Part shown: positions 13,238 through 29,751 of the stretch, piece by piece | How the letters are laid out: each line of letters opens with the position of its first letter | Numbering within the stretch: the first letter of the stretch is position 1 | Source: an uncultured Bacilli bacterium | GTDB taxonomy: Bacteria; Bacillota_I; Bacilli_A; RF39; UBA660 | Length of the DNA: 51,011 nt | Assembly: GCA_948479395.1 (NCBI GenBank) | Contig: CAOLUI010000005.1 | Coordinates: forward strand, 1-51,011 | Direction of reading: 5' to 3' | Notes under the pieces: model-generated | What the model was told of the DNA's origin: nothing | Database searches by the model: none | The model's input: only the letters and a program-made list of their open reading frames with translations | Translations under genes and position numbers: made by a program

Positions 13238-14980
13238 ATGATGAAAAATAAAAACAAATCAAATTTTTTAAAGAATATTAAAAAAACTTGGAATTATATA
13301 AGGGAATGTAAATTCAATTTAATTGGATATGCTGTGGTCAGCATTGTTGAAGCTGTAATTGGTGCAATTTTACCTTTAATTTCTGCTAAAATTATTTTAA
13401 ACATTACTGATGGAGTTATGATGCAATTAATATTGTCTGCTTTAACAGTATTTGGTATCGAATTTATATTATATATTGTGTTCTATTTTAAAGGATTTCT
13501 ATATCAAAGAGTTTATCAAAAAACATTGATTAATTTACAAACTGCTGTTGCTAGAGAAACATTAAATTTAGAAATAAGGGAAATAGACAGAGCATCCTCT
13601 GGATTATTTATAGATAGACTAAATAAAGATACTGGGGATATTTCAGGAATGTTTATGGAATATACATATTGGACATCATACGTAATATCAAATATTGGTG
13701 TTTTAGTTGCTGTCTTTATATTAAATAGATATTTATTCATATATGCCGTTATAACTTCAATTTGCATATTTTTAATAAATAAGAAAAGATTAAGTAAGCA
13801 GTATGAAGTACAAAAAAATTTAAAAAAAATTCAAGAAAAAAAAACAGGACTTACTGGAGAACTTGTTAGAGGTATAAGAGATATTAAAGTATTAAATGCC
13901 AGTAATACCATTCTAAAGCAAACAACGAATAAAATCATAGAATCTTCAAATGAAGAAGTGAAAATGTTAAATATTAGAAGAATATATCAATATTTTGAAA
14001 ATAATTTAAGAGCAATAAGCGATTTACTTTTTATTGTAATAGGATGTGTTCTGCATAACAAATCTTTATTAACAATTCCTACTTTTGTTATAATTTATAA
14101 TTATCAATCTAAAATAAAGAATTTATTAACTGGTGTTGTTCAATTATCAGAATATAATAAAAAATTTGTTGTCGCTTCTGATAGAATTTATGAAGTTATT
14201 GAAAATGAAAAATTTAGCAAAGAAAAATTTGGAACTTTGAGTACAAAAAAATTGTCAGGTCATATAAAATTTAATAATGTAAAATTTGGCTATAATGATA
14301 ATAAAATTATTGATGATATGAGTTTTGAAATCAAGCCTAATCAAAAGGTTGCCTTTGTTGGTAAAAGTGGTGCTGGTAAAACAACTATATTTAGTTTAAT
14401 AACAAAATTATATTCTATTGATGAAGGTGAAATATTATTAGATGGACATAATATTAATGATTTGAATTGCGATTCCTTAAGAAATAATATGTCTATTATT
14501 ACTCAAAATCCCTATATATTCAATTTTTCAATAAAGGACAATTTACTTTTAGCAAAAGAAAATGCAAGTATGAAGGAGATTCGTAATGCTTGTAAAATGG
14601 CATGTATTGATGATTTTATTATGTCTTTACCAGACAAATATGAAACAATGGTTGGTGAAAATGGAGTAATATTATCAGGTGGGCAAAAACAAAGGTTAGC
14701 AATTGCGAGAGCTTTGCTTATGAAAACTGAAATTATTTTGTTTGATGAAGCTACAAGTGCTTTGGATAACGAAACTCAAAGTGAAATACAAAATGCGATA
14801 AAAAACTTAAAAGGTGAATATACAATATTAATTGTTGCACATAGATTATCTACTGTAATAGATAGTGATAAAATATTTGTTGTAGACGATGGTAAAATAA
14901 TTGATAGTGGTTCTCATAAAGAATTATTGAAAAAAAGTAATTTTTATAAAAATCTATATGAAAAAGATTTAAATGTTTAA
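13238..14980 (+). CDS. ABC transporter ATP-binding/permease fusion (exporter type), intact; cargo of the insertion
   Basis: 580 aa. N-terminal TM domain, then 'GKSGAGKTT', 'LSGGQKQRLAIARAL', 'IILFDEATSALD' and 'VAHRLS'. A GAGGAG SD lies upstream. Confidence 0.9.
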   Translation: MMKNKNKSNFLKNIKKTWNYIRECKFNLIGYAVVSIVEAVIGAILPLISAKIILNITDGVMMQLILSALTVFGIEFILYIVFYFKGFLYQRVYQKTLINLQTAVARETLNLEIREIDRASSGLFIDRLNKDTGDISGMFMEYTYWTSYVISNIGVLVAVFILNRYLFIYAVITSICIFLINKKRLSKQYEVQKNLKKIQEKKTGLTGELVRGIRDIKVLNASNTILKQTTNKIIESSNEEVKMLNIRRIYQYFENNLRAISDLLFIVIGCVLHNKSLLTIPTFVIIYNYQSKIKNLLTGVVQLSEYNKKFVVASDRIYEVIENEKFSKEKFGTLSTKKLSGHIKFNNVKFGYNDNKIIDDMSFEIKPNQKVAFVGKSGAGKTTIFSLITKLYSIDEGEILLDGHNINDLNCDSLRNNMSIITQNPYIFNFSIKDNLLLAKENASMKEIRNACKMACIDDFIMSLPDKYETMVGENGVILSGGQKQRLAIARALLMKTEIILFDEATSALDNETQSEIQNAIKNLKGEYTILIVAHRLSTVIDSDKIFVVDDGKIIDSGSHKELLKKSNFYKNLYEKDLNV

Positions 14981-15017
14981 AAGGAGAATGCTTTTTTTGA
15001 TTAATTTTGTATTTTGC

Positions 15018-15037
15018 TTTGGGTATAAGGTCTATTC
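15018..15037 (-). repeat. Right terminal inverted repeat of the insertion
   Basis: Plus strand reads TTTGGGTATAAGGTCTATTC. Its reverse complement aligns with 12811-12830. Confidence 0.6.
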
Positions 15038-15039
15038 TA

Positions 15040-15359
15040 GGGGGGGGGGAATAAATTTTTCTGGAGGTCAAAAACAAAGAATTGCTATAGCAAGAGCTTT
15101 AGCTAAGAATAGTAAAATAATATTATTTGATGAAGCAACTAGCGCTTTAGATAACGAAGCCCAAGAAAAAATTATTAAAGTTATTAATGAAATAGCTAAA
15201 GATCATACAATTATCACAATTGCTCATCGTCTTTCAACTATAATAGATTCAGATACAATTCATATAATGGACAAAGGAAAGATAATTGCCTCAGGAACTC
15301 ATCAATCTTTATTAAAAAATAGCTCAATTTATCAGGAATTATATCAAAATAATGCGTAA
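15040..15359 (+). pseudogene. ABC exporter 3' fragment (signature motif to natural stop) belonging to the gene at 11469
   Basis: From the G10 run: '(G)INFSGGQKQRIAIARAL', 'IILFDEATSALD' and 'IAHRLS'. This is exactly the NBD part missing after 12809. The 'MFKRRM...' N-terminus in the ORF track is element-derived read-in. Confidence 0.75.
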
Positions 15360-17139: not shown

Positions 17140-17216
<77 letters not shown>

Positions 17217-17227
17217 TTTTGTTTTTT

Positions 17228-17304
17228 GGCCAGTTGGTGAAGCGGCTTAACACACTGCCCTTTCACGGCAGCATTCACGGGTCCGAATCCCGTACTGGTC
17301 ACCA
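17228..17304 (+). tRNA. tRNA-Glu (anticodon TTC)
   Basis: Acceptor GGCCAGT/ACTGGTC, anticodon arm CTGCC-CTTTCAC-GGCAG, T-arm GGTCCGAATCC, encoded CCA. Confidence 0.85.
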
Positions 17305-17474: not shown

Positions 17475-17902
17475 TTAATGCCATAAAGAGAATTTTTTTG
17501 TTAAAGGATCTATGATATCTTTTTCTCCAAAACCAACGATACAAAAATATTTCATTTCTTCTTCTGAAGTTTCTAATGTTTTATCTAATTGTTCTTTAAA
17601 AGTATCACCTGTCATTGTTTCAGTAAAATCTGTAAAAAGGATATTACTTTCAATAAAATTTTTTCTTAATTTTTTTATTTCGTTATTTTTGCCTCTTAAT
17701 ACAATTAATGATAAACCTGATATACTCTTGTGAATAGAGCCTTCTTTATCAGTAAAATCAATAAAACTCATTTTTTCTTTTAAATCATTTGTAGCAATAG
17801 ATACTAACCCTACACAGGAATGAGCAATTGCATTTAGTGCTTTTCCAATTTCTAATCTTTATTAACTACAGCAACAAATTTATGTGTTTCATTATAAACC
17901 AT
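17475..17902 (-). pseudogene. DUF2000-family gene with a 1-nt frameshift
   Basis: Minus-strand ATG at 17902 gives MVYNETHKFVAVVNKD*. Restoring one T in GATTAGAA (about 17853-17857) gives ...VVNKDLEIGKALNAIAHSCVGLVSIATNDLKEKMSFIDFTDKEG..., continuous with the 98-aa ORF. The length of 428 nt is 3n-1. Layout matches DUF2000 from memory. Confidence 0.6.
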
Positions 17903-18232: not shown

Positions 18233-18308
18233 TGGTGTCCCCTCAGGGATTCGAACCCTGGACCCACTGATTAAGAGTCAGTTGCTCTACCAACTGAGCT
18301 AAGGAGAC
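18233..18308 (-). tRNA. tRNA-Lys (anticodon CTT)
   Basis: Reverse complement GTCTCCTTAGCTCAGTTGGTAGAGC..., anticodon arm ACTGA-CTCTTAA-TCAGT, T-arm GGTTCGAATCC, encoded CCA. Confidence 0.9.
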
Positions 18309-18394: not shown

Positions 18395-18691
18395 ATGTTA
18401 AAAACAAAGTATGAAAGAATGAATAAAGAAGAAAAGAAAAAGTTGGTTGAAAAATATAAGAAAAATGATTCAGGATTAGCAATATATAATCGTTTAATTC
18501 GCTTAAATATCACGGGTATTTTAGGTATAATTTTTTCTAGTTTTCTTTTTATATCCCAATATAAATCTTTAGAAATATTAGATTATTTAACCATTATTCC
18601 TCTTTTTTTAGCTTCTTTATTATTTGTAATAATGGCCCACAAATTAAAACTGAAAGTATTAAATAATTTTCTTATAAAAAATAAAATATAA
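18395..18691 (+). CDS. Small two-TM membrane protein
   Basis: 98 aa with a Lys-rich N-terminus and two hydrophobic helices. An AGGTGA SD lies upstream. Confidence 0.5.
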   Translation: MLKTKYERMNKEEKKKLVEKYKKNDSGLAIYNRLIRLNITGILGIIFSSFLFISQYKSLEILDYLTIIPLFLASLLFVIMAHKLKLKVLNNFLIKNKI

Positions 18692-18703
18692 TAGGGAGAA
18701 AAT

Positions 18704-19204
18704 ATGCAAAAATTATTTTATAACACAGCCAAAGAAACAATAGAAATAGTTTTAGAAAATAATAATTTTTGGTTGGATTTAAAAAATATAATTACTTTAT
18801 ATGGAATTAGAAATAATAAAGATTTATTAGAAAAATATAAGACGAAATTGTTAAATAATAAATTATATTATCATTTAAATGACGTATTAGAATTAGGATA
18901 TAAGTTAACTAAAAAAGAGGCTATACAACTTTTATCTTGGTCAACTAACATATTAAAAGAAAGAATTAATATTAATAAAGATGAAAAAGTCTATAATTAT
19001 CGAATATATTTAGGCGATTATCATAATGGTTATGATTATATTGCTACTGTCTTAGATGAAACAGATATTAGAAATTATTATTTTCCTAATGAAAAATATA
19101 CTAAATTGTTAGTTATTAGACATGATATTTATCAAGATATTGATGAACCATATTTATTAGAATATTTTGATAATAGACTTAGTAGAAAAAGAAAAAAATT
19201 TTGA
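18704..19204 (+). CDS. Shortened RhuM-like protein (tentative)
   Basis: 'TIEIVLENNNFWLDLKNIITLYG' and 'KLYYHLNDVLELGYKLTKKEAIQLLSWSTNILKE' parallel RhuM 'IEVRLEDETVWLTQAQMAELF' and 'YYNLDVIISVGYRVKS..GTQFRIWATQVLKE' (from memory). A GGGAGA SD lies upstream. Confidence 0.45.
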   Translation: MQKLFYNTAKETIEIVLENNNFWLDLKNIITLYGIRNNKDLLEKYKTKLLNNKLYYHLNDVLELGYKLTKKEAIQLLSWSTNILKERININKDEKVYNYRIYLGDYHNGYDYIATVLDETDIRNYYFPNEKYTKLLVIRHDIYQDIDEPYLLEYFDNRLSRKRKKF

Positions 19205-19289
19205 GTCCAAAAGCATAAGTAAAAGATTAAAAATGTTATATTTGCAATAACGATATTATTTTGATATTATTTATTATAGTGATTATAGC

Positions 19290-22200
19290 ATGAATGATAT
19301 AGATATTTTAAATCAAAAATTAAAATCTGATTATAGCTCATTTCAAGAAGTTTTTAATTTGCCAGAAGCACTAGAGGTCTGTATAAAAAATCCAAAACTA
19401 TATAAATATATTTATTATTTTAATGAAAATACTTGGACAAATGATAATCAGAAACTATTTTCTGATATATTAGAAGAGTATAATAAAAGTTATCATTTTT
19501 CTAAATTCAAAATTACGAACCCATCGTTATTAACGCATGCTTACCAACTTGATTTAGCCTCATTATATAGAAATGCTACAAATGAGTCCTTAAATGAAGA
19601 AAATATTAAATTAGCTTATGAAAATAATAAAGTAGATTTTTTGTTATTTAGAAATAATTCTTTAGCTCTTAAAATCTATTTAAATAATAATTATAATTTC
19701 CAATTTGAGTTTACTGATTCAGCTTGGAATAGTGAAAATGCCAGAATTTATATAAAAAAAGTTAACGAAGGAAGTTTAAAAAATAAAATTTTTAGTTTTT
19801 ATACAAGTCTAATTTGTTTTAAAGAAGTCATTAATGAGCATCAATTTCAATTTATTAATAATTTTTATACTAATGATTTTAAGTTGGATGACAAAATAGG
19901 AAATCTATTATGTCAAAAAATGATTGAACATCCTGATTCGATAGTACCAATCAAAATGTGTATACTAAAAGAAATCGAAAGTTATTATTTAAAAGGATTA
20001 TTATTAGCTAAAAGAATCGATTTAGTAGATTCAGCTTTAACAGAAAAATCTCTAAATGAAGAAAATTTCTTATTATTAGCTGATAACTTAGAAGAATACT
20101 TAAATAGCGTTAATGATAAAATTAGTTTTTATTTATTCAAAAGCTCTATTATTTTGCATAAACTAATTGAAATAAAAAAATATGATATTATTTCATATTA
20201 TATATATAATGGGAATTGGACTGAGGAAAATATTAAGTTTTATTATGAACAAAATCTAAAAGACTCCTATTATCATATATTTGTCTACAATCCTAAAGCT
20301 TTAGAAATTTACTGTTTAAAAGATTATAAATATAAGATAAATTTTGCTAAAGAATGCTGGACAAAAGAAAATATTGAATATTATTTTGCCTATTTAAAGC
20401 GTGTTAAACCTAGTAATATAATACCAACATTTATATATATTCCTAATTTTTTTAACAGTTGTTTAAAGCATAATGTTTTTAATTATTTTAAATTTTCTTA
20501 TGATGAGAATATTAATTACGATTTATTATGTGAGAAATTAAGAGAATTCCCTAATGAAGAATTCAATTTTCATAATACTTTATTAAAAGGACATCCTGAA
20601 TTAGTTTTAACTTTTATTGAGACAAAAAGATATTATATATTTGAGAGTTGTCTTATTGATTGTAATCAAATAATTATTGAAAAATTTTGTTCCATTATGG
20701 ATGAATATTTTCAATTAGGTTTTAAATATGTTCCGAGTGCCATTGAAAATAGTCCTTTATTCATTAAAAGAGCCATTGAATTAAAACATTATGATAAATT
20801 GTCGTCTTTATCCCATGGCTGGACTATAGAAAACGCAACTTTATTAGCCAATAAATATGTAACTGATGATAATCTTTATTTTTATGATCTGTCAAGATGT
20901 AATAGTAAATATTTAATATATGCTTTAAAAAATTTAAATGTATATTTGCCATCAAATAGTAAGTATACTAGTAATTGCATTGATTACCATAATTACAAAG
21001 ATAGTTTCTTTACTTATCTAACAGAAAATAAAATCAATGATGTTTATAATTTAATTGATTATTTTAAACAAGAAAATGTTATTGAGGAATACATATCAAA
21101 TGGGTACTTGACAGATAAATTTAAGAAGATATTGATTTTTAATCATGGATACCAATGTTATTGTCAAGAAAAAGGAATTGATATTTTTGCCACTATCAAT
21201 GATTTAAGTTTAATTTCTTATTTAAAATGCGCGTATAAAGTACCTAATTTGTATCACGGAATATTTATTAATGAAACAAATTATAACTATTATTTTGATG
21301 AAAATGGTCCAAAACAAGAATTATATGATGACTTATTTAATGTCAATTCTTTATCTATTTTTAAAGCATTAATTGATAAATATCCTAACGAAAAAGATAA
21401 ACTAAAAATTTATTTTGCTGATAAATTTAGTAATATTGAAAACAAAAAGATTATCACATCATGTTTAAATTATTTTAAAAAGAATTATAAAATTATGACT
21501 GAAAAAAAGGTTGATGATTTATTAAACCTTATTTATAGAATTGACTATAGTAACGCCTTAGAAATCCATCAATTTTCTGAACAAATAATATCTAATATTT
21601 TAACTTGTGCTAATCCTTTAGATAAATTAAATAAAATTGAAAAAATATTTTTAAAAGATGATATTCCAATGTTTGCGAAAGTATATCAATGCTTTAAAAC
21701 ATTATATCCGCAATTTCAAAAATATGATAATCACAAAATGGTGTTTGATTTTAGTGATAATAGTCGTATATCTCCTGAATTATTAAAAGCAGATCCTAAT
21801 AGCATAAGAATGCAATTATTTAAAAAAATAGTAAATAATGATAAAACTAAAATTCGTTTTCAACTTATTTTTAATGACTTATTACGATGTTCACTTAATA
21901 GTAAAAATGAATCTTTAATGCAATATTTAAATAATTTAAAAAAGGGTAACGATTATATGTTTAAACTATATAATCATAATTTCGATAGTGATATTTTAAC
22001 CTCAGAAGAATTAAAGATTTTAAATAAGTTTGTTAGTTATTTAACCGTTATTTATGAAAATATAAATAATCAGAGTATAAATCATTTAGAGTTAGCTGAT
22101 AAATGTCAATCTTTAATCGCTTATTATAAACCTAATAGTAGATATTCATTAGCAGATAGAGTTGTAAGATCATTTGGCTTCTTTGCAAGTATTGACTCTT

Positions 22201-23837
22201 TGGAACAAATATTTGATTTGATAAATTGTTCTCATCAAAAAGCAAAATTAGAAAATGAATATCTAGGTTCGTATTTAGAAAATCATAATTTTGAATTACA
22301 TGATGATGATTTATTGCGATGTATTGGGAAATTTGATAATTTAGGGAGTTCTTTAGAAAATGGAAATGTATGTAAAGAATTATTAGGTTCTTTTATAGGA
22401 AAAAGTGATTCAGATACTACCCCAATGGATGTTGATTTTTCTTTAATTAAAAGTTCTGCTTCTATCTATAATTGTATTGATGGAACTCCAACAGGTTGGA
22501 ATTTTGGTAATATATTCTTAATTTTAAAAGATTATTATGTTACTAGAGACAAAAATGGCAACTTACTAGAATCTACATATGATCCTATGAAAGTGGAAGT
22601 TTTTGGGACAAGTACAAAAAAGGGCGGACATGAAACTCATTGGGGTGGTAGAAGTGGATTTGCTAAAACGAATATAAAATGTATTTTGTATAAAAAAATG
22701 GCGAAAATTAATTCTAATAAACCTTATAATGAAGATGGAAGTGTAAACTATGAGGAAAATGCTTCCTTTGATGATTTGCCTTCAATTAAGTTTGAAATTG
22801 TTCGAAATGGTCTGTATATTCCAATTGTTGATTTAAGTGGTAAATTAATATTTACGATTAATGAATATAACTATCTACGTTCAAAAATGATGGGATTATC
22901 TAAATATGGCTGCCCAGAATATCATTTAGATACGAATTCTTTGTATTTTGATGGTATTGATGAATTAGTTATGGAGATGGTAAACGATAGAAAAAGAATA
23001 TCAAATATTCGAAAATATATTTATAAACGTATAACAGAGATTATAATGGACTCTAAGTATAATTTAGGTATCCAAAAAATTGATAATTCTTTTCAAGGGG
23101 ATTTAACAAGTGGGATTGCCGAATTATTAGAAATTGGATCAACTGCTAGATTTAGCAATATTCCTTTTGATAGTGATTTTGATTTTATGTTAAAGTTAGA
23201 TAGAAAAATAATGATTGATAAAGAAAAAACAAAAAAAATTATTGAGATTTTTGAAAAAGAATTTAAACCTTATAAAACTGTTCCTACAAAATCAAATCGC
23301 TTTCGTGGTACAGGGATAAGCATATCTGAATTTGATAATCTTGATATTGATATTTCTATAGATAAAAGAAGAAATAACGACAGCTACTCGTCAGAAAAAG
23401 CCTTAAATGATATATATAATTCTATTAAAAAACAATATCCTGATGATTACCCTTATGTTTTAGCTAATATTGTAAAAGCAAAACAATTACTTAAAAATGC
23501 AAATATCTATAAACGCGTAGATAATGGTCTAGGTGGGATAGGAGTTGAGAATTGGATATTACAAAATGGTGGATCTTTAAAAAATGCTTGTCAAGATTTT
23601 ATTATACACGCATATAAAGCGGATGGAACTTTAAAAAGTTTTGCTGAATTTAAATCTTCTTATTATATATTTGATTTTGGGTGTAATCATGAACCAAGAG
23701 AAAAAATAAAAAATATTTATTATTCTTATGATAACTATATGGCTGATAACTTGAATGAATATACCTATAAGAAAATGGCAAATATTTTACAGGAGTATAT
23801 TGATAAAATAAATTTTGAAAATAAAAATAGAATATAA
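19290..23837 (+). CDS. 1,515-aa cytoplasmic repeat-rich protein with C-terminal Pol-beta-superfamily nucleotidyltransferase (CCA/PAP/OAS-like) domain
   Basis: Uninterrupted 4.5-kb ORF. Five or more W-(T/N)-x-(E/D)-N repeats lie in the first ~560 aa. 'IGSTARFSNIPFDSDFDF' (G1283-S1284...D1296-x-D1298) fits hG[GS]x9-13DxD. Also 'LDIDISID' and a 'GLGGIGVENWILQNGGS' neck-like motif. Confidence 0.8.
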   Translation: MNDIDILNQKLKSDYSSFQEVFNLPEALEVCIKNPKLYKYIYYFNENTWTNDNQKLFSDILEEYNKSYHFSKFKITNPSLLTHAYQLDLASLYRNATNESLNEENIKLAYENNKVDFLLFRNNSLALKIYLNNNYNFQFEFTDSAWNSENARIYIKKVNEGSLKNKIFSFYTSLICFKEVINEHQFQFINNFYTNDFKLDDKIGNLLCQKMIEHPDSIVPIKMCILKEIESYYLKGLLLAKRIDLVDSALTEKSLNEENFLLLADNLEEYLNSVNDKISFYLFKSSIILHKLIEIKKYDIISYYIYNGNWTEENIKFYYEQNLKDSYYHIFVYNPKALEIYCLKDYKYKINFAKECWTKENIEYYFAYLKRVKPSNIIPTFIYIPNFFNSCLKHNVFNYFKFSYDENINYDLLCEKLREFPNEEFNFHNTLLKGHPELVLTFIETKRYYIFESCLIDCNQIIIEKFCSIMDEYFQLGFKYVPSAIENSPLFIKRAIELKHYDKLSSLSHGWTIENATLLANKYVTDDNLYFYDLSRCNSKYLIYALKNLNVYLPSNSKYTSNCIDYHNYKDSFFTYLTENKINDVYNLIDYFKQENVIEEYISNGYLTDKFKKILIFNHGYQCYCQEKGIDIFATINDLSLISYLKCAYKVPNLYHGIFINETNYNYYFDENGPKQELYDDLFNVNSLSIFKALIDKYPNEKDKLKIYFADKFSNIENKKIITSCLNYFKKNYKIMTEKKVDDLLNLIYRIDYSNALEIHQFSEQIISNILTCANPLDKLNKIEKIFLKDDIPMFAKVYQCFKTLYPQFQKYDNHKMVFDFSDNSRISPELLKADPNSIRMQLFKKIVNNDKTKIRFQLIFNDLLRCSLNSKNESLMQYLNNLKKGNDYMFKLYNHNFDSDILTSEELKILNKFVSYLTVIYENINNQSINHLELADKCQSLIAYYKPNSRYSLADRVVRSFGFFASIDSLEQIFDLINCSHQKAKLENEYLGSYLENHNFELHDDDLLRCIGKFDNLGSSLENGNVCKELLGSFIGKSDSDTTPMDVDFSLIKSSASIYNCIDGTPTGWNFGNIFLILKDYYVTRDKNGNLLESTYDPMKVEVFGTSTKKGGHETHWGGRSGFAKTNIKCILYKKMAKINSNKPYNEDGSVNYEENASFDDLPSIKFEIVRNGLYIPIVDLSGKLIFTINEYNYLRSKMMGLSKYGCPEYHLDTNSLYFDGIDELVMEMVNDRKRISNIRKYIYKRITEIIMDSKYNLGIQKIDNSFQGDLTSGIAELLEIGSTARFSNIPFDSDFDFMLKLDRKIMIDKEKTKKIIEIFEKEFKPYKTVPTKSNRFRGTGISISEFDNLDIDISIDKRRNNDSYSSEKALNDIYNSIKKQYPDDYPYVLANIVKAKQLLKNANIYKRVDNGLGGIGVENWILQNGGSLKNACQDFIIHAYKADGTLKSFAEFKSSYYIFDFGCNHEPREKIKNIYYSYDNYMADNLNEYTYKKMANILQEYIDKINFENKNRI

Positions 23838-23889: not shown

Positions 23890-23918
23890 AAGCTCGTATT
23901 TACGAGCTTATTTTTTTT
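23890..23918 (+). terminator. Rho-independent terminator after the 1,515-aa gene
   Basis: AAGCTCG-tattta-CGAGCTT followed by T8. Confidence 0.8.
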
Positions 23919-23920
23919 AA

Positions 23921-24011
23921 TGGCGGAGCAGGAGAGATTCGAACTCTCGCGCCAGTTACCCGACCTATACCCTTAGCAGGGGCACCTCTTCAGCCTCTTG
24001 AGTACTGCTCC
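23921..24011 (-). tRNA. tRNA-Ser (anticodon GCT), long variable arm
   Basis: Reverse complement GGAGCAGTACTCAAGAGGCTGAAGAGG-TGCCC-CTGCTAA-GGGTA..., T-arm AGTTCGAATCT, acceptor CTGCTCC, G, CCA. Confidence 0.9.
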
Positions 24012-24958: not shown

Positions 24959-25828
24959 TTATTCGCCTAAAGTGGCATTTTTTATGTCTGTTAAATAATT
25001 ATCCATAATTGTTAAATAATTTTCATTATTATTTTTACTTTCATTAGATAATGTCGTCATTGTATTAACTTTAACTACTTTGGCATTATAGTCTTTTTCT
25101 AAATTTTTAATTAAATCTGTTTTTTCTTCTGTATCCTTAATAAAAATAGTTGTATATAAACCATCTTTAAAATTATTTTTTAAAGCATTAAGATTTGTCG
25201 GAGTTAAATTTTCTTCATCTTCCAAAGAAATAACATTAAAACCATAATTATTTAAATACTTAAACATATTAGAAGAAACTATTAATGTTCCTTTGTTTAA
25301 ATCATTAGCACTTTTGGCAATTTTTCTTAAATCAGCATCCATCATAGACAAGGTTTCTTCTAATTTTTGATAATTTTTTGTAATTTCTTCATTAATATAT
25401 TTACTTTTTGTAAATTCTTGTAAATTATTTTTGATAGTGGTTGCCAGCATTAAATAATAATTAGGAGACAACCACAATTCTTCAATTCCGTTATCAAAAT
25501 TTAAACCATAAGCTACATCAATAATTCTGATTTTATTGTTTTTATTAATTAAATTTTTTGCCACATTTAATTCATTAGAAAGCCCATTATAAATAAAAAT
25601 ATTATTTTTACTATATTCTGTAATTTGTTTATCCGTTAAACTATAACTATTAATATCTACTCCTTCCGGATAAATACTAGTTATATCTTTTTGGTTATAA
25701 ATTTCATTAGTGATATAAGCTAAAGGATAAATAGTAGTTAAAATATGTAATTCTTCTGTTATATTTTGTTTACAAGCAGTTGTACTTATTAAAAGTACTA
25801 AAAGTAAAATAACTTTTAATTTTTTCAT
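24959..25828 (-). CDS. Metal (Zn/Mn-type, ZnuA/TroA-like) ABC substrate-binding lipoprotein; no cognate permease or ATPase nearby
   Basis: Lipobox 'LLISTTAC'. 'ILTTIYPLAYITNEI' is typical of cluster A-I metal SBPs. Start moved to MKKLKV behind GGAG, 1 nt after the yidD stop. Confidence 0.65.
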   Translation of the reverse strand: MKKLKVILLLVLLISTTACKQNITEELHILTTIYPLAYITNEIYNQKDITSIYPEGVDINSYSLTDKQITEYSKNNIFIYNGLSNELNVAKNLINKNNKIRIIDVAYGLNFDNGIEELWLSPNYYLMLATTIKNNLQEFTKSKYINEEITKNYQKLEETLSMMDADLRKIAKSANDLNKGTLIVSSNMFKYLNNYGFNVISLEDEENLTPTNLNALKNNFKDGLYTTIFIKDTEEKTDLIKNLEKDYNAKVVKVNTMTTLSNESKNNNENYLTIMDNYLTDIKNATLGE

Positions 25829-25829
25829 C

Positions 25830-26060
25830 TTAATTCTCCTTTTTCGGAACCGGATCATATCCAAAATCACCTTTAGGACGGCATTTTTTTAATCTTTTTA
25901 GACCCATTTTTATTCCTTTTTTAATTCCATATATATTTATTGCTTCAACCATATATTCACTACATGTTGGGGTAAAACGACATAATTTATGGGAAGCAAA
26001 AGGGATTATTTGATAACATCTTATAATAAATATAAGAATATTTTTCATTTTCTTCACCAT
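25830..26060 (-). CDS. yidD: Membrane protein insertion efficiency factor YidD
   Basis: 'CRFTPTCSEYMVEAI..YG..KG...GLKRLKKCRP' is a YidD hallmark. 76 aa. Confidence 0.85.
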   Translation of the reverse strand: MVKKMKNILIFIIRCYQIIPFASHKLCRFTPTCSEYMVEAINIYGIKKGIKMGLKRLKKCRPKGDFGYDPVPKKEN

Positions 26061-26146
26061 CTTAATTTTACTACAATTTATATTTATTGTAAAATATGTT
26101 TTTGGCTATCTTTATGATATAATAAATAAGACTTGGAGGAATTATA

Positions 26147-26818
26147 ATGAAAGAAATACTAGAATCCTTTGGAATAAAAGTTAAAAACGAAGAACTTTTA
26201 TTAAATGCTTTAACTCACAGCTCTTACTCAAATGAACATAATACTTCTAATTATGAAAGATTAGAATTTTTAGGCGATGCTATTTTAGAAGTTATAACTA
26301 GTGAATATTTATTCTTGAATACAGATTATAATGAAGGAGATATGAGTAAAATAAGAGCTAGTTACGTTTGCGAAGAAGCTTTATACAATTATGCTAAGGA
26401 TATTAGATTAAAAGATTATATTAGAGTAGGTCATGGTCAAGAAAAAAATATTAATAGTACTATTATTGCAGATGTTTTTGAAAGTATTATAGCTGTTATT
26501 TATTTAGAAAATAATTTAGAAATAACCAAAAATTTTGTTTTAAAACTAATTCTTCCTTATATCGAAAATAATGTGCAATTTGTCCATGATTATAAATCAT
26601 TATTACAAGAAATGGTGCAAACAGATAAAAAAAGCTTAGATTATGTTTTGATAAAAGAAACAGGTCCAGCTCATGAAAAAGAATTTACAATTGAGGTGCA
26701 AATTGATGGGATGATTTATGGAAGAGGTATCGGTAAAAGTAAAAAAGAAGCTGAACAAAATGCTGCCCAGGATGCTTATCAAAAGTCAGTAGTTAAAGGA
26801 GAAAAAAGATGTTTTTAA
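26147..26818 (+). CDS. rnc: Ribonuclease III
   Basis: 'ERLEFLGDAIL' and 'DVFESIIAVIYL'. C-terminal dsRBD 'GPAHEKEF...GKSKKEAEQNAAQDA'. Confidence 0.9.
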   Translation: MKEILESFGIKVKNEELLLNALTHSSYSNEHNTSNYERLEFLGDAILEVITSEYLFLNTDYNEGDMSKIRASYVCEEALYNYAKDIRLKDYIRVGHGQEKNINSTIIADVFESIIAVIYLENNLEITKNFVLKLILPYIENNVQFVHDYKSLLQEMVQTDKKSLDYVLIKETGPAHEKEFTIEVQIDGMIYGRGIGKSKKEAEQNAAQDAYQKSVVKGEKRCF

Positions 26819-29751
26819 AAAGTATTAAAGCTAATGGATTTAAATCTTTTGCTGAAAAGATTAATATAATGCTCGATAATAACATTACTTGTATTGTTGG
26901 GCCCAATGGATCTGGAAAATCTAATATTGTAGATGCTGTTCGTTGGGTTTTGGGAGAACAATCTATAAAAAATTTACGCGGAACCTCTGGAATGAGTGAT
27001 GTTATATTTACTGGATCCAAAACTAGAATAGGAGCTAATCGTGCTGAAGTGTCTTTGACTTTTGATAATAGTGATCACTACTTAAATAGCGAATTTAAAG
27101 AAATTGAAATCAAAAGAATTCTTTATCGAAGTGGAGATAGTGAATATTTCATTAATAACTCCAAAGTTAGATTAAAAGATATTACAGATCTTTTTTTAGA
27201 TAGTGGAGCGGGAAATGATTCTTTTAACATAATTAGTCAAGGAAATATTGAAGCGATTATTAATAGTAAGCCACACGAACGAAGAATAATTTTTGAAAGT
27301 GCTGCTGGAGTTTTAAAATACAAAAAACGCAAAGAAGAAAGTCTAAAAAAATTAGAAAAAACTCGTGAAAATATTGAAAAAGTCAATTTAATTATCGAAG
27401 AGTTAAAAACAACTCTGGAACCCTTAAAAGAGCAAAGTCTAAATGCCCAAAAATATTTAGAATTAAAAGAACAATTAAAAAATATTGAAATAGCTACGAT
27501 TGTGAATGAAATTCAATCCCTTAATGATTTAATAACGCAAGTAAAAAACGAAATAGAAACTAAGAATACCAAAATATTAGATTTAAATACATCTTCTAGT
27601 GATGAATCAGTTAAATTAGAAACTTTAAAATTACAAAGTATTAAATTAGATGAAATTATTAATGAAACTAATAAAACTTTATTAAAGGTTACTAGTAAAT
27701 TTGTTAATCTCCAAAATGAAAAATTAATGTATACCGAAAGAAAAAAATATAATGGTGATAATCTTAATCTTGATCAAAATATTTTAAACTTAAAAGAAGA
27801 AGTTTTAGCATTAGATAAAACTATTAACTTGTTAGAAAATGAAATAAATTCTTTAACTATTCAAATGAAAAAATATAATCATGATTTAAGTGAAATAAAT
27901 GAAGAACAAAGCTTTAATAAACTAAAAGGCAATGCACTAAATTTAAAATTTCAAGAAAGTTTAAAAGAATTATATACTTTAAAAAGTCAAGCTGAAGTTT
28001 TAGAAAATAGTCTTTTGAATGATGTTAAAATGCCTAATTCTGTAAAAAGTGTTTTAACAAATGAAAGTTTAAAAGGTATTTATAATACAATAGGTAAACT
28101 TATCACCGTTCCTGATCAATATGTAACAGCTATTGATACCATTTTAGGAGCTAGTTCAAATTTTATTGTCGTTAAAGATGAGTTAGTGGCTAAAAAATCT
28201 ATCGCTTATCTAAAAGAAAAAAAATTAGGTCGAGCCACCTTTTTTCCCCTTAATATTATTAAAGAAAAAAATATTTCTTCCCAAATAAAAGATAAATTAA
28301 AAAAAATGTCTGGTTTTATTGGGGTTGCGAGCGAGTTAGTAGAATATAAACCAGAATTTTGTAATATTATTAGAAATCAGCTAGGAAATGTCTTAGTCGT
28401 TGATTCAATCGATTCTCTAAATAAAATTGGCAAAGAACTAGAATACAAATTTCGCATTGTTACTTTGGATGGAGAAGTATTACATACTGGAGGTTCTTTA
28501 AGTGGAGGTTTTAAATCTTCTCATAACAGTATATTAAACGATAAACTAGAATTAACCAAAATAAAAAATAATATAGCAAATAAAGAACAAGAAAATATTA
28601 GCTTTAGAAAAGAATTAGAAGAACATGAACAAAAACAAAATACTTTGCACGAAAAAGAAGAAGAATTAAATCGAATTATTATAAATTTAAAAGAAAGTAT
28701 AAAAGAAAAAACTAATTTAATGGATAATAAAAAGCAAAAACAATTAGAGCTTAACAAAGAATTAGAAGGCTCGATTGCTCTTAAAGATGGTAATATTGAT
28801 CAAAAATTAATGGTTATGTTAGATGAAGTAAATGAAGCTCAAATGGCTAAAGATTTAACTGAGACTAAATTAAACGATTTAAAAAATGAAAAGAATAATC
28901 TTTTAAGCGAAATAACTGAATTAGAGCATACTTATCGCGAAAAAAATTCTTTACATAATAAATTCCAAAATGAATTAAAAGCCCAAGAAATTGAATTAAG
29001 TAAATTAGAAATTAAATTAGATACTTTGTTAAATACTTTAAATGAAAATTATAATTTAACTTATGAGAAAGCTCAATTAACCTATATCTTAGAAATAGAT
29101 ATTAACTTAGCTCGAAAACAAGTTTTAGAATTAAAAAATTCGATTGCTAAATTAGGGGAAGTAAATGTTTTTGCCATTGAAGAATATGAAAGAATTAGTA
29201 CTCGTTATAATTTTTTAGAAAATCAAAAAAATGATTTAGAAGAAGCAAGTTCTAATTTAAATAATGTTATTGAAGAAATGGATACTATTATGATTGATAA
29301 ATTTAAATCCACTTTTACGGCGATTAATAAAGAATTTCAAAAAGTTTTTAAAAAATTATTTAAAGGGGGAACAGGTCTATTAAAACTTACCGATCCGGAA
29401 AATATTTTAGAAACCGGAATTGAAATAGTTGCTGAACCACCAGGAAAAAAATTAAATTCTATCGGTCTTTTAAGTGGGGGCGAAAAAACTCTTACTTCTA
29501 TTTCCCTTTTATTTGCTATTCTAAATATTAAAACTATTCCTTTTTGCATTTTAGATGAAGTAGAAGCTGCTCTTGATGAAGCCAATGTTGATGCTTTTGG
29601 TTCATATTTACAAGAATATAAAAAAAATAGTCAGTTTATTTTAATTACTCATAAAAAAAGAACAATGGAATATGCTGATACTTTATATGGAATAACCATG
29701 CAAGAATCTGGAGTAAGTAAAATAGTTAGTGTTAAACTTGAAAATATTTAG
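26809..29751 (+). CDS. smc: Chromosome segregation protein SMC (short, 980 aa)
   Basis: 'GPNGSGKSN', long coiled coils, hinge 'GRATFFPLN', 'LSGGEKTLTSISLLFA' and 'FCILDEVEAALD'. Overlaps the rnc stop. Confidence 0.9.
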   Translation: MFLKSIKANGFKSFAEKINIMLDNNITCIVGPNGSGKSNIVDAVRWVLGEQSIKNLRGTSGMSDVIFTGSKTRIGANRAEVSLTFDNSDHYLNSEFKEIEIKRILYRSGDSEYFINNSKVRLKDITDLFLDSGAGNDSFNIISQGNIEAIINSKPHERRIIFESAAGVLKYKKRKEESLKKLEKTRENIEKVNLIIEELKTTLEPLKEQSLNAQKYLELKEQLKNIEIATIVNEIQSLNDLITQVKNEIETKNTKILDLNTSSSDESVKLETLKLQSIKLDEIINETNKTLLKVTSKFVNLQNEKLMYTERKKYNGDNLNLDQNILNLKEEVLALDKTINLLENEINSLTIQMKKYNHDLSEINEEQSFNKLKGNALNLKFQESLKELYTLKSQAEVLENSLLNDVKMPNSVKSVLTNESLKGIYNTIGKLITVPDQYVTAIDTILGASSNFIVVKDELVAKKSIAYLKEKKLGRATFFPLNIIKEKNISSQIKDKLKKMSGFIGVASELVEYKPEFCNIIRNQLGNVLVVDSIDSLNKIGKELEYKFRIVTLDGEVLHTGGSLSGGFKSSHNSILNDKLELTKIKNNIANKEQENISFRKELEEHEQKQNTLHEKEEELNRIIINLKESIKEKTNLMDNKKQKQLELNKELEGSIALKDGNIDQKLMVMLDEVNEAQMAKDLTETKLNDLKNEKNNLLSEITELEHTYREKNSLHNKFQNELKAQEIELSKLEIKLDTLLNTLNENYNLTYEKAQLTYILEIDINLARKQVLELKNSIAKLGEVNVFAIEEYERISTRYNFLENQKNDLEEASSNLNNVIEEMDTIMIDKFKSTFTAINKEFQKVFKKLFKGGTGLLKLTDPENILETGIEIVAEPPGKKLNSIGLLSGGEKTLTSISLLFAILNIKTIPFCILDEVEAALDEANVDAFGSYLQEYKKNSQFILITHKKRTMEYADTLYGITMQESGVSKIVSVKLENI

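Follow-up and report, generated by a model that had tools for sequence, protein, structure and literature searches.

A giant gene with a conserved C-terminal core

The stretch of DNA analyzed here (hereafter, the window) is the 51,011-nucleotide contig CAOLUI010000005.1 from the assembly GCA_948479395.1 of an uncultured Bacilli bacterium of the RF39 lineage. The subject of this analysis is a giant gene of this contig, a complete open reading frame (ORF; 19290..23837, forward strand) that starts with ATG, encodes 1515 amino acids (aa) followed by a stop codon under genetic code 11, and is the sole long ORF in its region; all protein regions and motifs described below are encoded on the same strand. 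The protein (178.7 kDa; isoelectric point (pI) 6.15) has no signal peptide, hydrophobic N-terminus, or transmembrane segment (the Kyte-Doolittle mean over 19 residues peaks at 1.09). The gene is followed by an intrinsic terminator (23890-23909; feature 23890..23919, forward strand) that consists of an 8-bp stem, including 4 GC pairs, and a T-run; the chance expectation for a terminator of this type, with a hairpin and a T-run, is 0.6 sites. The terminator works in both strand readings and is common to the giant gene and a convergent tRNA-Ser gene (23921-24011, reverse strand). The single ORF, the terminator, and the lack of a signal peptide that were listed in a first-pass annotation of the window, made from the sequence alone, are thus all confirmed. 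Upstream of the gene lies a promoter-like site (19241..19270, forward strand), namely, TTGCAA, 17 nt, and TATTAT with an upstream TG, with the ATG 20 nt further; this is a consensus match only, and shuffled AT-rich sequence gives such matches equally often. The GC content of the gene (0.21-0.27) does not deviate from that of the uniformly AT-rich window (0.21-0.29).

Searches with the whole protein sequence against Pfam, NCBIfam, PADLOC, PHROGs, and PDB produced no significant match, PDB profile searches (with the A3 and A4 profiles) were empty, and a Pfam search on 33 sequences of the conserved core defined below found nothing significant for the query. The first-pass annotation regarded the architecture as one that could not be placed; with respect to Pfam, NCBIfam, PADLOC, PHROG, and PDB sequence models, this stands, but the protein is not one of a kind because at least 956 clusters share a 770-aa core with it. 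A word-indexed search with the whole protein retrieved only 8 clusters; seven of these were full-length homologs, and the eighth was a protein identical to the query (P0001). When a profile of residues 960-1515 was used instead in an exhaustive HMMER search, the count rose to 956 clusters (at 50% identity) at E<=1e-3, of which 650 had E<=1e-30. Almost all of the members listed are 1,000-1,700 aa long and carry the module at the C-terminus, and a few span 2,000-5,100 aa. In phmmer comparisons of the query with 32 full ORFs from GTDB genomes, most alignments started near query residue 745; hence the family-wide core consists of residues 745-1515 (770 aa).

The core has a constant layout, in which a C-terminal nucleotidyltransferase (NTase) is always preceded by an alpha/beta domain of ~240 residues and by another conserved domain of ~240 residues, whereas the N-terminal 600-1000 residues vary from clade to clade. 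The first core domain (residues 745-983; 21522..22238) contains the motifs SN(S/A)xEI, KIExxFxKNNxPxxGK, and SRxSPxL, with invariant P793 and S828. Judging from its sequence, this domain may be helical; the sole part that was modeled, residues 960-983, is of low confidence.

The C-terminal nucleotidyltransferase domain

According to the structural model, the last ~300 residues of the protein form a template-independent Pol-beta NTase with an intact catalytic site, of the poly(A) polymerase (PAP)/class I CCA-adding enzyme/terminal uridylyltransferase (TUTase) type. In the AlphaFold2 model of residues 960-1515, the predicted local distance difference test score (pLDDT) is 80-95 across residues 1209-1515, and the AlphaFold and Foldseek results together delineate a long helix, the catalytic domain of the NTase, and a helical 'neck' of the PAP/CCA type (residues 1223-1515; 22956..23834). 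A Foldseek search against PDB retrieved 27 NTase chains at E<=1e-3 with prob 1.0. The top matches are the Archaeoglobus class I CCA-adding enzyme (3ovs, 4x4u, 1uet; E 4e-5; 304-310 aligned columns), other matches with E-values from 4e-5 to 1e-3 include Trypanosoma brucei TUT4, GLD-2/TENT2, Cid1, yeast PAP, and Trf4, and CdnE and CdnC, which are cGAS/DncV-like nucleotidyltransferases (CD-NTases), matched more weakly (E about 1e-3).

Conservation was assessed in an alignment of 33 sequences from three phyla (Bacilli, Clostridia, and Saccharibacteria with other Patescibacteria). The NTase signature hG[GS]-x11-DxD is represented by G1283-S1284-T-A-R1287...D1296-F-D1298 (23136..23183), where the G, the S, the R, and both D residues are invariant; the third catalytic carboxylate, D1354 (23349..23351), is invariant as well and lies on a predicted beta-strand, 'LDIDISI'. 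In the neck motif G1413-L-G-G-I-G-V-E-N-W-I-L-Q-N-G-G-S1429 (23526..23576), G1415, G1416, G1418, and V-E-N-W are invariant; we take this motif to resemble GFLGGVSWAxLVA of PAP and GFSGYxxELL of the archaeal CCA enzyme. The other invariant residues of the domain are N1393, K1398, and K1408. The Pfam model NTP_transf_2 (PF01909) does not match the query itself; it does match two relatives, P0147 with 23.3 bits and P0153 with 21.6 bits, above its cut-off of 21 bits, and core members show weak matches to this model and to SMODS, the latter in 3 of the 33 sequences (best E-value 2e-3).

The first-pass annotation assigned this region to the PAP/CCA/OAS-type NTases by its motifs and hinged the assignment on the fold and on the conservation of the catalytic triad among homologs; Foldseek recovers the fold from the model, and the triad is invariant in the 33 homologs. 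Given the confident fold match, the invariant catalytic motif, and the relatives that pass the Pfam cut-off, the assignment is correct, and the domain is very probably active. The giant protein has the head and the neck only: it stops ~85 residues past the neck motif, and the structural match spans ~300 of the ~440 residues of the CCA enzyme.

The conserved middle domain

The domain that precedes the NTase (residues 984-1222; 22239..22955) is an acidic alpha/beta domain and the best-conserved region of the protein: it shows 71% identity to the ortholog P0003, compared with 45% for the N-terminus. Its motifs are GD(F/L)(I/L)(K/R)G, ILQNG, SDxTPxDxD, KxExF, HxGxRxG, and NGxYIPxxD. Across the 33 sequences, G1025, D1042, T1044, D1047, D1049, G1119, and G1123 are invariant, and E1030, P1045, E1103, H1117, and R1121 are nearly so; (K/R)1010 and N1173-G-x-Y-I-P1178 are conserved family-wide as well. 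In the first-pass annotation, residues 1000-1130 were considered unrecognizable, and the middle domain was called 'Gly/His-rich'. The quoted strings are indeed present and no sequence model fits them, but this region is conserved, is probably catalytic, and bears a weak likeness to ADP-ribosyltransferase (ART) folds.

With an alignment of 8 sequences, residues 960-1130 stayed at pLDDT below 50, whereas the domain by itself, aligned from 23 sequences, was modeled well (pLDDT 80.5; predicted template modeling score (pTM) 0.77). When the model of residues 984-1225 was compared with PDB using Foldseek, the top 50 matches were all ART folds, although weak (E 0.037-1), and included DarT1 (E 0.037), tankyrases, PARP4, CteC, Thermus DarT, and a diphtheria-toxin homolog. 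SopF is an ART, too. Among the viral models in BFVD, a protein of DUF3626, the SopF family (PMC6682159), ranks first (E 1.7e-3; prob 0.96), and PARP-like and DarT entries rank lower.

Several results speak against an ART fold. The TM-scores to ARTs are only about 0.17-0.37, so that the match is statistically weak; no ART family was detected with the Pfam models (in the query and the 33 core sequences) or in the PDB profile search; hhalign comparison of the middle-domain profile with the ART domain of human PARP1, using a sequence that agreed with the PDB entry, gave a probability of 0.2%; and the canonical ART triads, H-Y-E and R-S-E, are absent from the domain. Weighing the all-ART list of structural matches against the low TM-scores, the lack of matches to hidden Markov models (HMMs), the negative hhalign comparison, and the absent triads, we consider an ART-like fold to be slightly more probable than not on the basis of the model.

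Two other assignments were rejected. The resemblance of 'FLG-S--SD-TPLDTD' to G[GS]-x-DxD suggested a second NTase domain, but the top matches of the confident model include no NTase, and a Cys-His protease (C1028...H1117) is incompatible with the lack of conservation of C1028, which is A or S in most family members.

Clade-specific N-terminal regions

The large N-terminal region to which the NTase is joined appears to be non-catalytic and built of helical-looking repeats, as supported by the analysis of residues 1-560 (19290..20969). These contain seven ~47-residue repeats with the motif [W/L]-[TNS]-x-E-N, centered at residues 49, 101, 146, 255, 310, 357, and 511; the consensus is PSLFYNNPIALKVLLELNYLDKIISFTKEAWTEENIKLYFNKLKYLD. 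The five W-x-x-[ED]-N sites (W49, W146, W310, W357, W511), which are those quoted in the first-pass annotation, become seven with the Leu variants L101 and L255, and the proposal that the NTase is joined to a very large repeat scaffold agrees with this analysis. The motif accounts for 5 of the 8 Trp residues of the protein, with a chance probability estimated from residue frequencies at roughly 3e-8, and orthologs keep the motif residues. An HMM of the repeat detects 12 copies in the distant homolog P0027, from a 27%-identical homolog clade (E 6e-40). The repeat bodies resemble one another only moderately (mean local score in pairwise comparison of 36.6 versus 25.1 in control segments), and residues 1-560 are the least conserved part of the protein, with 82, 45, 44, 44, 43, 44, and 21% identity to the orthologs. 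Residues 561-744 (20970..21521), outside the family-wide core, are kept only in close orthologs.

The W-x-x-E-N repeats characterize the clade of the query. In a large gut clade (for example, P0208, 'Firmicutes bacterium CAG:321'), the N-terminus consists of DUF4116 repeats, and other clades have yet different repeats. DUF4116 (PF13475) has no match in the query at E<=1 in Pfam, and a link between the two repeat types was rejected because the repeat HMM matches proteins of the DUF4116 clade only marginally.

Some of the largest members of the family, super-giant proteins of 1,541-3,984 aa, contain toxin-type domains. In one of these, the ORF at 167-9064 of L010, an ADPrib_exo_Tox domain (E 1e-14) is found ~600 aa beyond the core; others, namely, L034 (3-11954), P0102, P0176, and P0147, have added Transglut_core (transglutaminase-like papain-fold) domains.

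Hosts and phylogeny of the family

Relatives of the giant protein in GTDB number 142 matches in 185,579 species genomes, a lower bound that is limited by the search patterns. Among the Bacilli, the hosts are uncultured gut and rumen bacteria, Erysipelotrichaceae, and metagenome-assembled genomes (MAGs) labeled 'Mycoplasma sp.'; among the Patescibacteria, they are Candidatus Saccharibacteria and at least 10 other lineages; the remaining hosts are one uncultured Clostridia clade and two 'Gammaproteobacteria' MAGs. A further homolog search, with a middle-domain profile made from the loci of Patescibacteria and Clostridia, retrieved 23 proteins only, mostly fragments. The GC content of the loci spans 0.23-0.63, which indicates that AT-rich composition does not account for the family. 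A viral origin was considered and rejected because IMG/VR viral contigs yielded no relatives. Our literature search, which covered giant Saccharibacteria proteins, DUF4116, DUF3626, and combinations of ART with NTase, found no account of the family. The giant protein is no orphan: its family is large and unnamed, appears to be undescribed, and occurs in bacteria with small genomes.

The neighbor-joining tree of the family is mostly taxonomic; the exception is that the Saccharibacteria copies group with those from Bacilli, apart from the other lineages of the candidate phyla radiation (CPR). Two individual sequences are placed unexpectedly for their labels. One from a Gammaproteobacteria-labeled MAG (L054; CAZXZS010000001.1, 759 kb, locus GC 0.63) groups with the non-Saccharibacteria CPR, and one from a 'Muribaculaceae' MAG (L021; locus GC 0.27) groups with Bacilli sequences, which could reflect either horizontal transfer or mis-binning and mislabeling.

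Genomic neighborhood

In the window, tRNA genes flank the giant gene on both sides; a RhuM-like gene fragment lies upstream of it, and znuA, yidD, rnc, and smc follow downstream. The tRNA genes, Ile-GAT and Glu-TTC (17140-17304), Lys-CTT (18233-18308), and Ser-GCT (23921-24011), all four with an encoded 3' CCA, are each followed by a T-run. De novo addition of CCA is, accordingly, not required for these tRNAs. The first-pass annotation placed the gene in a tRNA-flanked island beside a RhuM-like gene. The tRNAs and the RhuM-like fragment do flank it, but an island is not supported by the uniform GC content and the syntenic arrangement in the closest relative, the 85%-identical ortholog; no integrase was found in the window.

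The position of the gene varies among other homologs, which lie after ftsA-ftsZ, after polC, between rnc-yebC and prfB beside znuA-yidD, before alr, or among surface proteins with leucine-rich repeat (LRR) and Big_2 domains. All-against-all clustering of the ORFs from 80 loci found only generic ABC ATPases and GTPases, with no conserved partner or defense gene; given this result and the housekeeping positions, the defense-island setting suggested in the first-pass annotation is not supported. The single exception in this clustering is an ORF of 110-155 aa immediately downstream of the giant gene in the Clostridia clade, which starts a few bases past the giant-gene stop codon (L046, 9725-10180; L051, 9707-10156; L056, 9714-10166; L078, 4647-5111; L087, 9752-10207; and others). 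Neither Pfam nor PHROG models match this small ORF, which is missing from the window and from the Bacilli and CPR clades; it could encode an immunity, antitoxin, or chaperone partner.

Several other genes near the giant gene deserve mention. Directly upstream of it in the window, there are ORFs of 98 aa and 166 aa (18395-19204, forward strand), the second of which matches only the N-terminal ~40 residues of the RhuM model (PF13310, below the cut-off) and of the PADLOC model PDC-S05; this partial match suggests a RhuM-like gene that has been truncated or split. The syntenic relative (L007) has a pair of 96 aa and 164 aa at the same position. The same relative carries, ~3 kb upstream of its giant gene, a gene for a 127-aa PBECR2/PBECR3 (barnase/EndoU/colicin-like nuclease) protein (492-875); in the window, no such gene was noticed. 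A 98-aa ORF (17475-17771, reverse strand) that lies between tRNA-Lys and the tRNA-Ile/Glu pair corresponds to positions 38-132 of the 133 of DUF2000, so that this gene is probably truncated at the N-terminus. Further upstream (13238-15359, forward strand), a 580-aa ORF (13238-14980) overlaps at its end with a 128-aa ORF (14973-15359), which matches no more than the C-terminal end of an ABC ATPase domain; the two may derive from one ABC transporter gene by a frameshift or a split.

The znuA-yidD-rnc block adjoins the giant gene both in the window (24959-29751) and in a distant Bacilli relative (L089, 5302-12056; 32% identity in the core), on opposite sides. This shared adjacency suggests long-standing chromosomal residence combined with local rearrangement. 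At the locus of the homolog P0007 (L001, 16725-20862), genes for GNAT acetyltransferase, AadA_C, and APH proteins follow one another ~5-9 kb downstream; they resemble an aminoglycoside-resistance cluster and are probably unrelated to the homolog.

Possible functions of the giant protein

We tentatively propose that the giant protein is a soluble, stand-alone, multidomain NTase enzyme that is used in inter-organism or inter-genomic conflict, as an effector or toxin, rather than in housekeeping. Under this proposal, which we regard as possible, D1296, D1298, and D1354 would hold two Mg2+ ions and a nucleoside triphosphate (NTP), and the nucleoside monophosphate (NMP) would be passed to a hydroxyl acceptor. 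The default expectation for this NTase clade would be an RNA 3'-OH, and given that the core is acidic, a protein or a small cationic acceptor might serve as well. The middle domain, perhaps ART-like, would act on the substrate of the NTase or present it, through an invariant set of its own ((K/R)1010, D1042-x-T-P-x-D1047-x-D1049, E1103, and H1117-x-G-x-R1121), and the variable repeat array would pick the target or partner. The conflict role is suggested by the diversification of the N-termini, the patchy distribution across phyla of bacteria with similar lifestyles, and the toxin-domain fusions in the super-giant relatives; the small downstream ORF of the Clostridia clade, the varied genomic position, and the grouping of Saccharibacteria with Bacilli were also counted in its favor.

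Many observations weigh against this proposal. The protein lacks a signal peptide, Pfam revealed no secretion or trafficking domain, neither PADLOC nor PHROG models matched, a search of IMG/VR viral contigs yielded no family member, and the giant gene has no immunity-like neighbor, either in the window or among the Bacilli and CPR relatives. The housekeeping neighbors ftsZ, polC, rnc-yebC, and prfB are co-directional with it. With regard to the enzymatic mechanism, the body and tail domains with which class I CCA enzymes bind the acceptor and T-arm of tRNA are absent from the protein, the acidic core (across the family, the middle domain has a median pI of 4.8 and the NTase one of 5.3) is atypical for NTases that bind RNA ends, and the ART-like character of the middle domain is contested by the low TM-scores, the lack of ART models, the hhalign result, and the missing triads described above.

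An elaboration that we consider unlikely is that the core is a bifunctional enzyme, in which a derived ART-fold domain and the PAP-like NTase make or attach a novel nucleotide-derived modification, as an effector of small-genome, host-dependent bacteria. In such an enzyme, the metal-binding-type DxTPxDxD and HxGxR motifs would replace the NAD-type triad at the catalytic positions, and the targets would be host or neighbor cells of the Saccharibacteria, other CPR, and gut Bacilli.

Among the rival explanations, it is somewhat unlikely, in our assessment, that the protein is a lineage-specific housekeeping RNA enzyme, in which the NTase tails, repairs, or marks the 3' ends of RNA or tRNA and the N-terminus docks to the ribosome or to RNA-processing machinery. 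The best structural matches are, indeed, RNA 3'-end enzymes (the CCA enzyme, TUT4, GLD-2, Cid1, PAP, Trf4), the neighbors are often co-directional housekeeping genes (ftsA-ftsZ, polC, and rnc-yebC-prfB in relatives; znuA-yidD-rnc-smc in the window), the tree is mostly taxonomic, and the catalytic residues are under strong purifying selection. However, such an enzyme would hardly be expected to be so patchily distributed, even with the GTDB count taken as a lower bound, to change its N-terminus wholesale between clades, or to have relatives with toxin-type fusions; furthermore, it lacks the tRNA-binding body and tail. The acidity of the core, together with the CCA encoded by all four tRNA genes of the window, is a mild argument against a classical housekeeping role at tRNA or RNA ends and keeps protein and small-molecule acceptors in play. 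Nucleotidylylation of a basic protein or small molecule, that is, an AMPylation-type reaction as in DrrA/SidM, GlnE, MNT, and the aminoglycoside NTases, fits the family-wide acidity of the catalytic core, as expected with cationic substrates, and the failure to detect any RNA-binding domain with Pfam in the query and the 33 core sequences; moreover, relatives fuse the core to the protein-modifying toxin domains ADPrib_exo_Tox and Transglut_core. Nevertheless, no AMPylating NTase is among the 50 best structural matches, which consist of RNA 3'-end NTases and CD-NTases, and the neck motif is what we take to be the PAP/CCA type, so that this explanation appears quite unlikely.

The least probable explanation, in our judgment, is a sensor-coupled signaling NTase similar to OAS, cGAS, and the CD-NTases, in which the repeats would sense an invader and the NTase would make a linear or cyclic oligonucleotide, as in the cyclic oligonucleotide-based antiphage signaling system (CBASS). 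A variable N-terminus suits a sensor, CdnE and CdnC are among the structural matches, and SMODS is the commonest, although weak, Pfam match of the core members. But these CD-NTase matches are weaker than those to the RNA-tailing enzymes, no effector or receptor gene (SAVED, TIR, patatin, and others) is adjacent in the window or the 80 loci, PADLOC gave no match, and a signaling role leaves the middle domain, which is conserved even better than the NTase, unexplained.

Whichever of these functions applies, the Patescibacteria and low-GC gut Bacilli, with their tiny genomes, spend 4-15 kb on this giant gene, and its conservation across phyla, with the active-site residues intact, implies that it likely matters for the lifestyle of the hosts. 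The 770-residue core is a concrete target for biochemistry in organisms that are hard to study, with candidate key residues in both the NTase (D1296, D1298, D1354) and the middle domain (D1047, D1049, E1103, H1117). Should the proteins be effectors, they would join the small number of molecular tools proposed for episymbiotic bacteria; should they be RNA-tailing enzymes, they would represent bacterial use of a PAP/CCA fold of the type found in eukaryotes and archaea.

Comparison with known systems

The giant protein shares with the class I CCA enzymes, PAPs, TUTases, GLD-2, and Trf4 the catalytic beta-sheet, the hG[GS]-x11-DxD motif, the third Asp, and the neck, G-x-L-G-G-x-G-x-E-x-x-x-L. It differs from this group in showing no sequence similarity to it in HMMER searches against PDB sequences, in terminating a 1,515-aa protein with an NTase that stands behind two other conserved domains, and in combining a head and neck only with an acidic core in a host whose tRNA genes encode CCA. 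The CD-NTases (SMODS) of CBASS, OAS, and cGAS have the same fold, and 3 of the 33 sequences show weak SMODS matches; unlike in CBASS, there are no effector or Cap genes near the giant gene and no PADLOC match, and the protein is far larger, with extra conserved domains.

Comparison of the sequences suggests that the middle-domain segment 'h-h-(K/R)-G-h ... I-L-Q-N-G' resembles the strand-helix 'L-W-H-G-S ... I-L-S-Q-G' of the PARPs; in contrast, the D-x-T-P-x-D-x-D segment and the H-x-G-x-R-x-G strand have no counterpart in known ARTs.

As multidomain proteins, the members of the family can be compared with the polyvalent proteins of phages and conjugative elements (PMC5512222, PMC3482391) and with polymorphic toxins (MARTX-like, Rhs-like), which are likewise giant polypeptides with several enzymatic domains and variable repeats. 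The arrangement is the reverse of that in polymorphic toxins: here, the enzymatic core at the C-terminus is constant and the N-terminus varies. Furthermore, the giant protein has no secretion, PAAR, LXG, MuF, or trafficking domain, most clades have no immunity gene, and the family is absent from the viral contigs of IMG/VR. The DUF4116 (PF13475) proteins resemble the query in that their repeats, at ~47-49 aa, occupy in relatives the same position as the W-x-x-E-N repeats.

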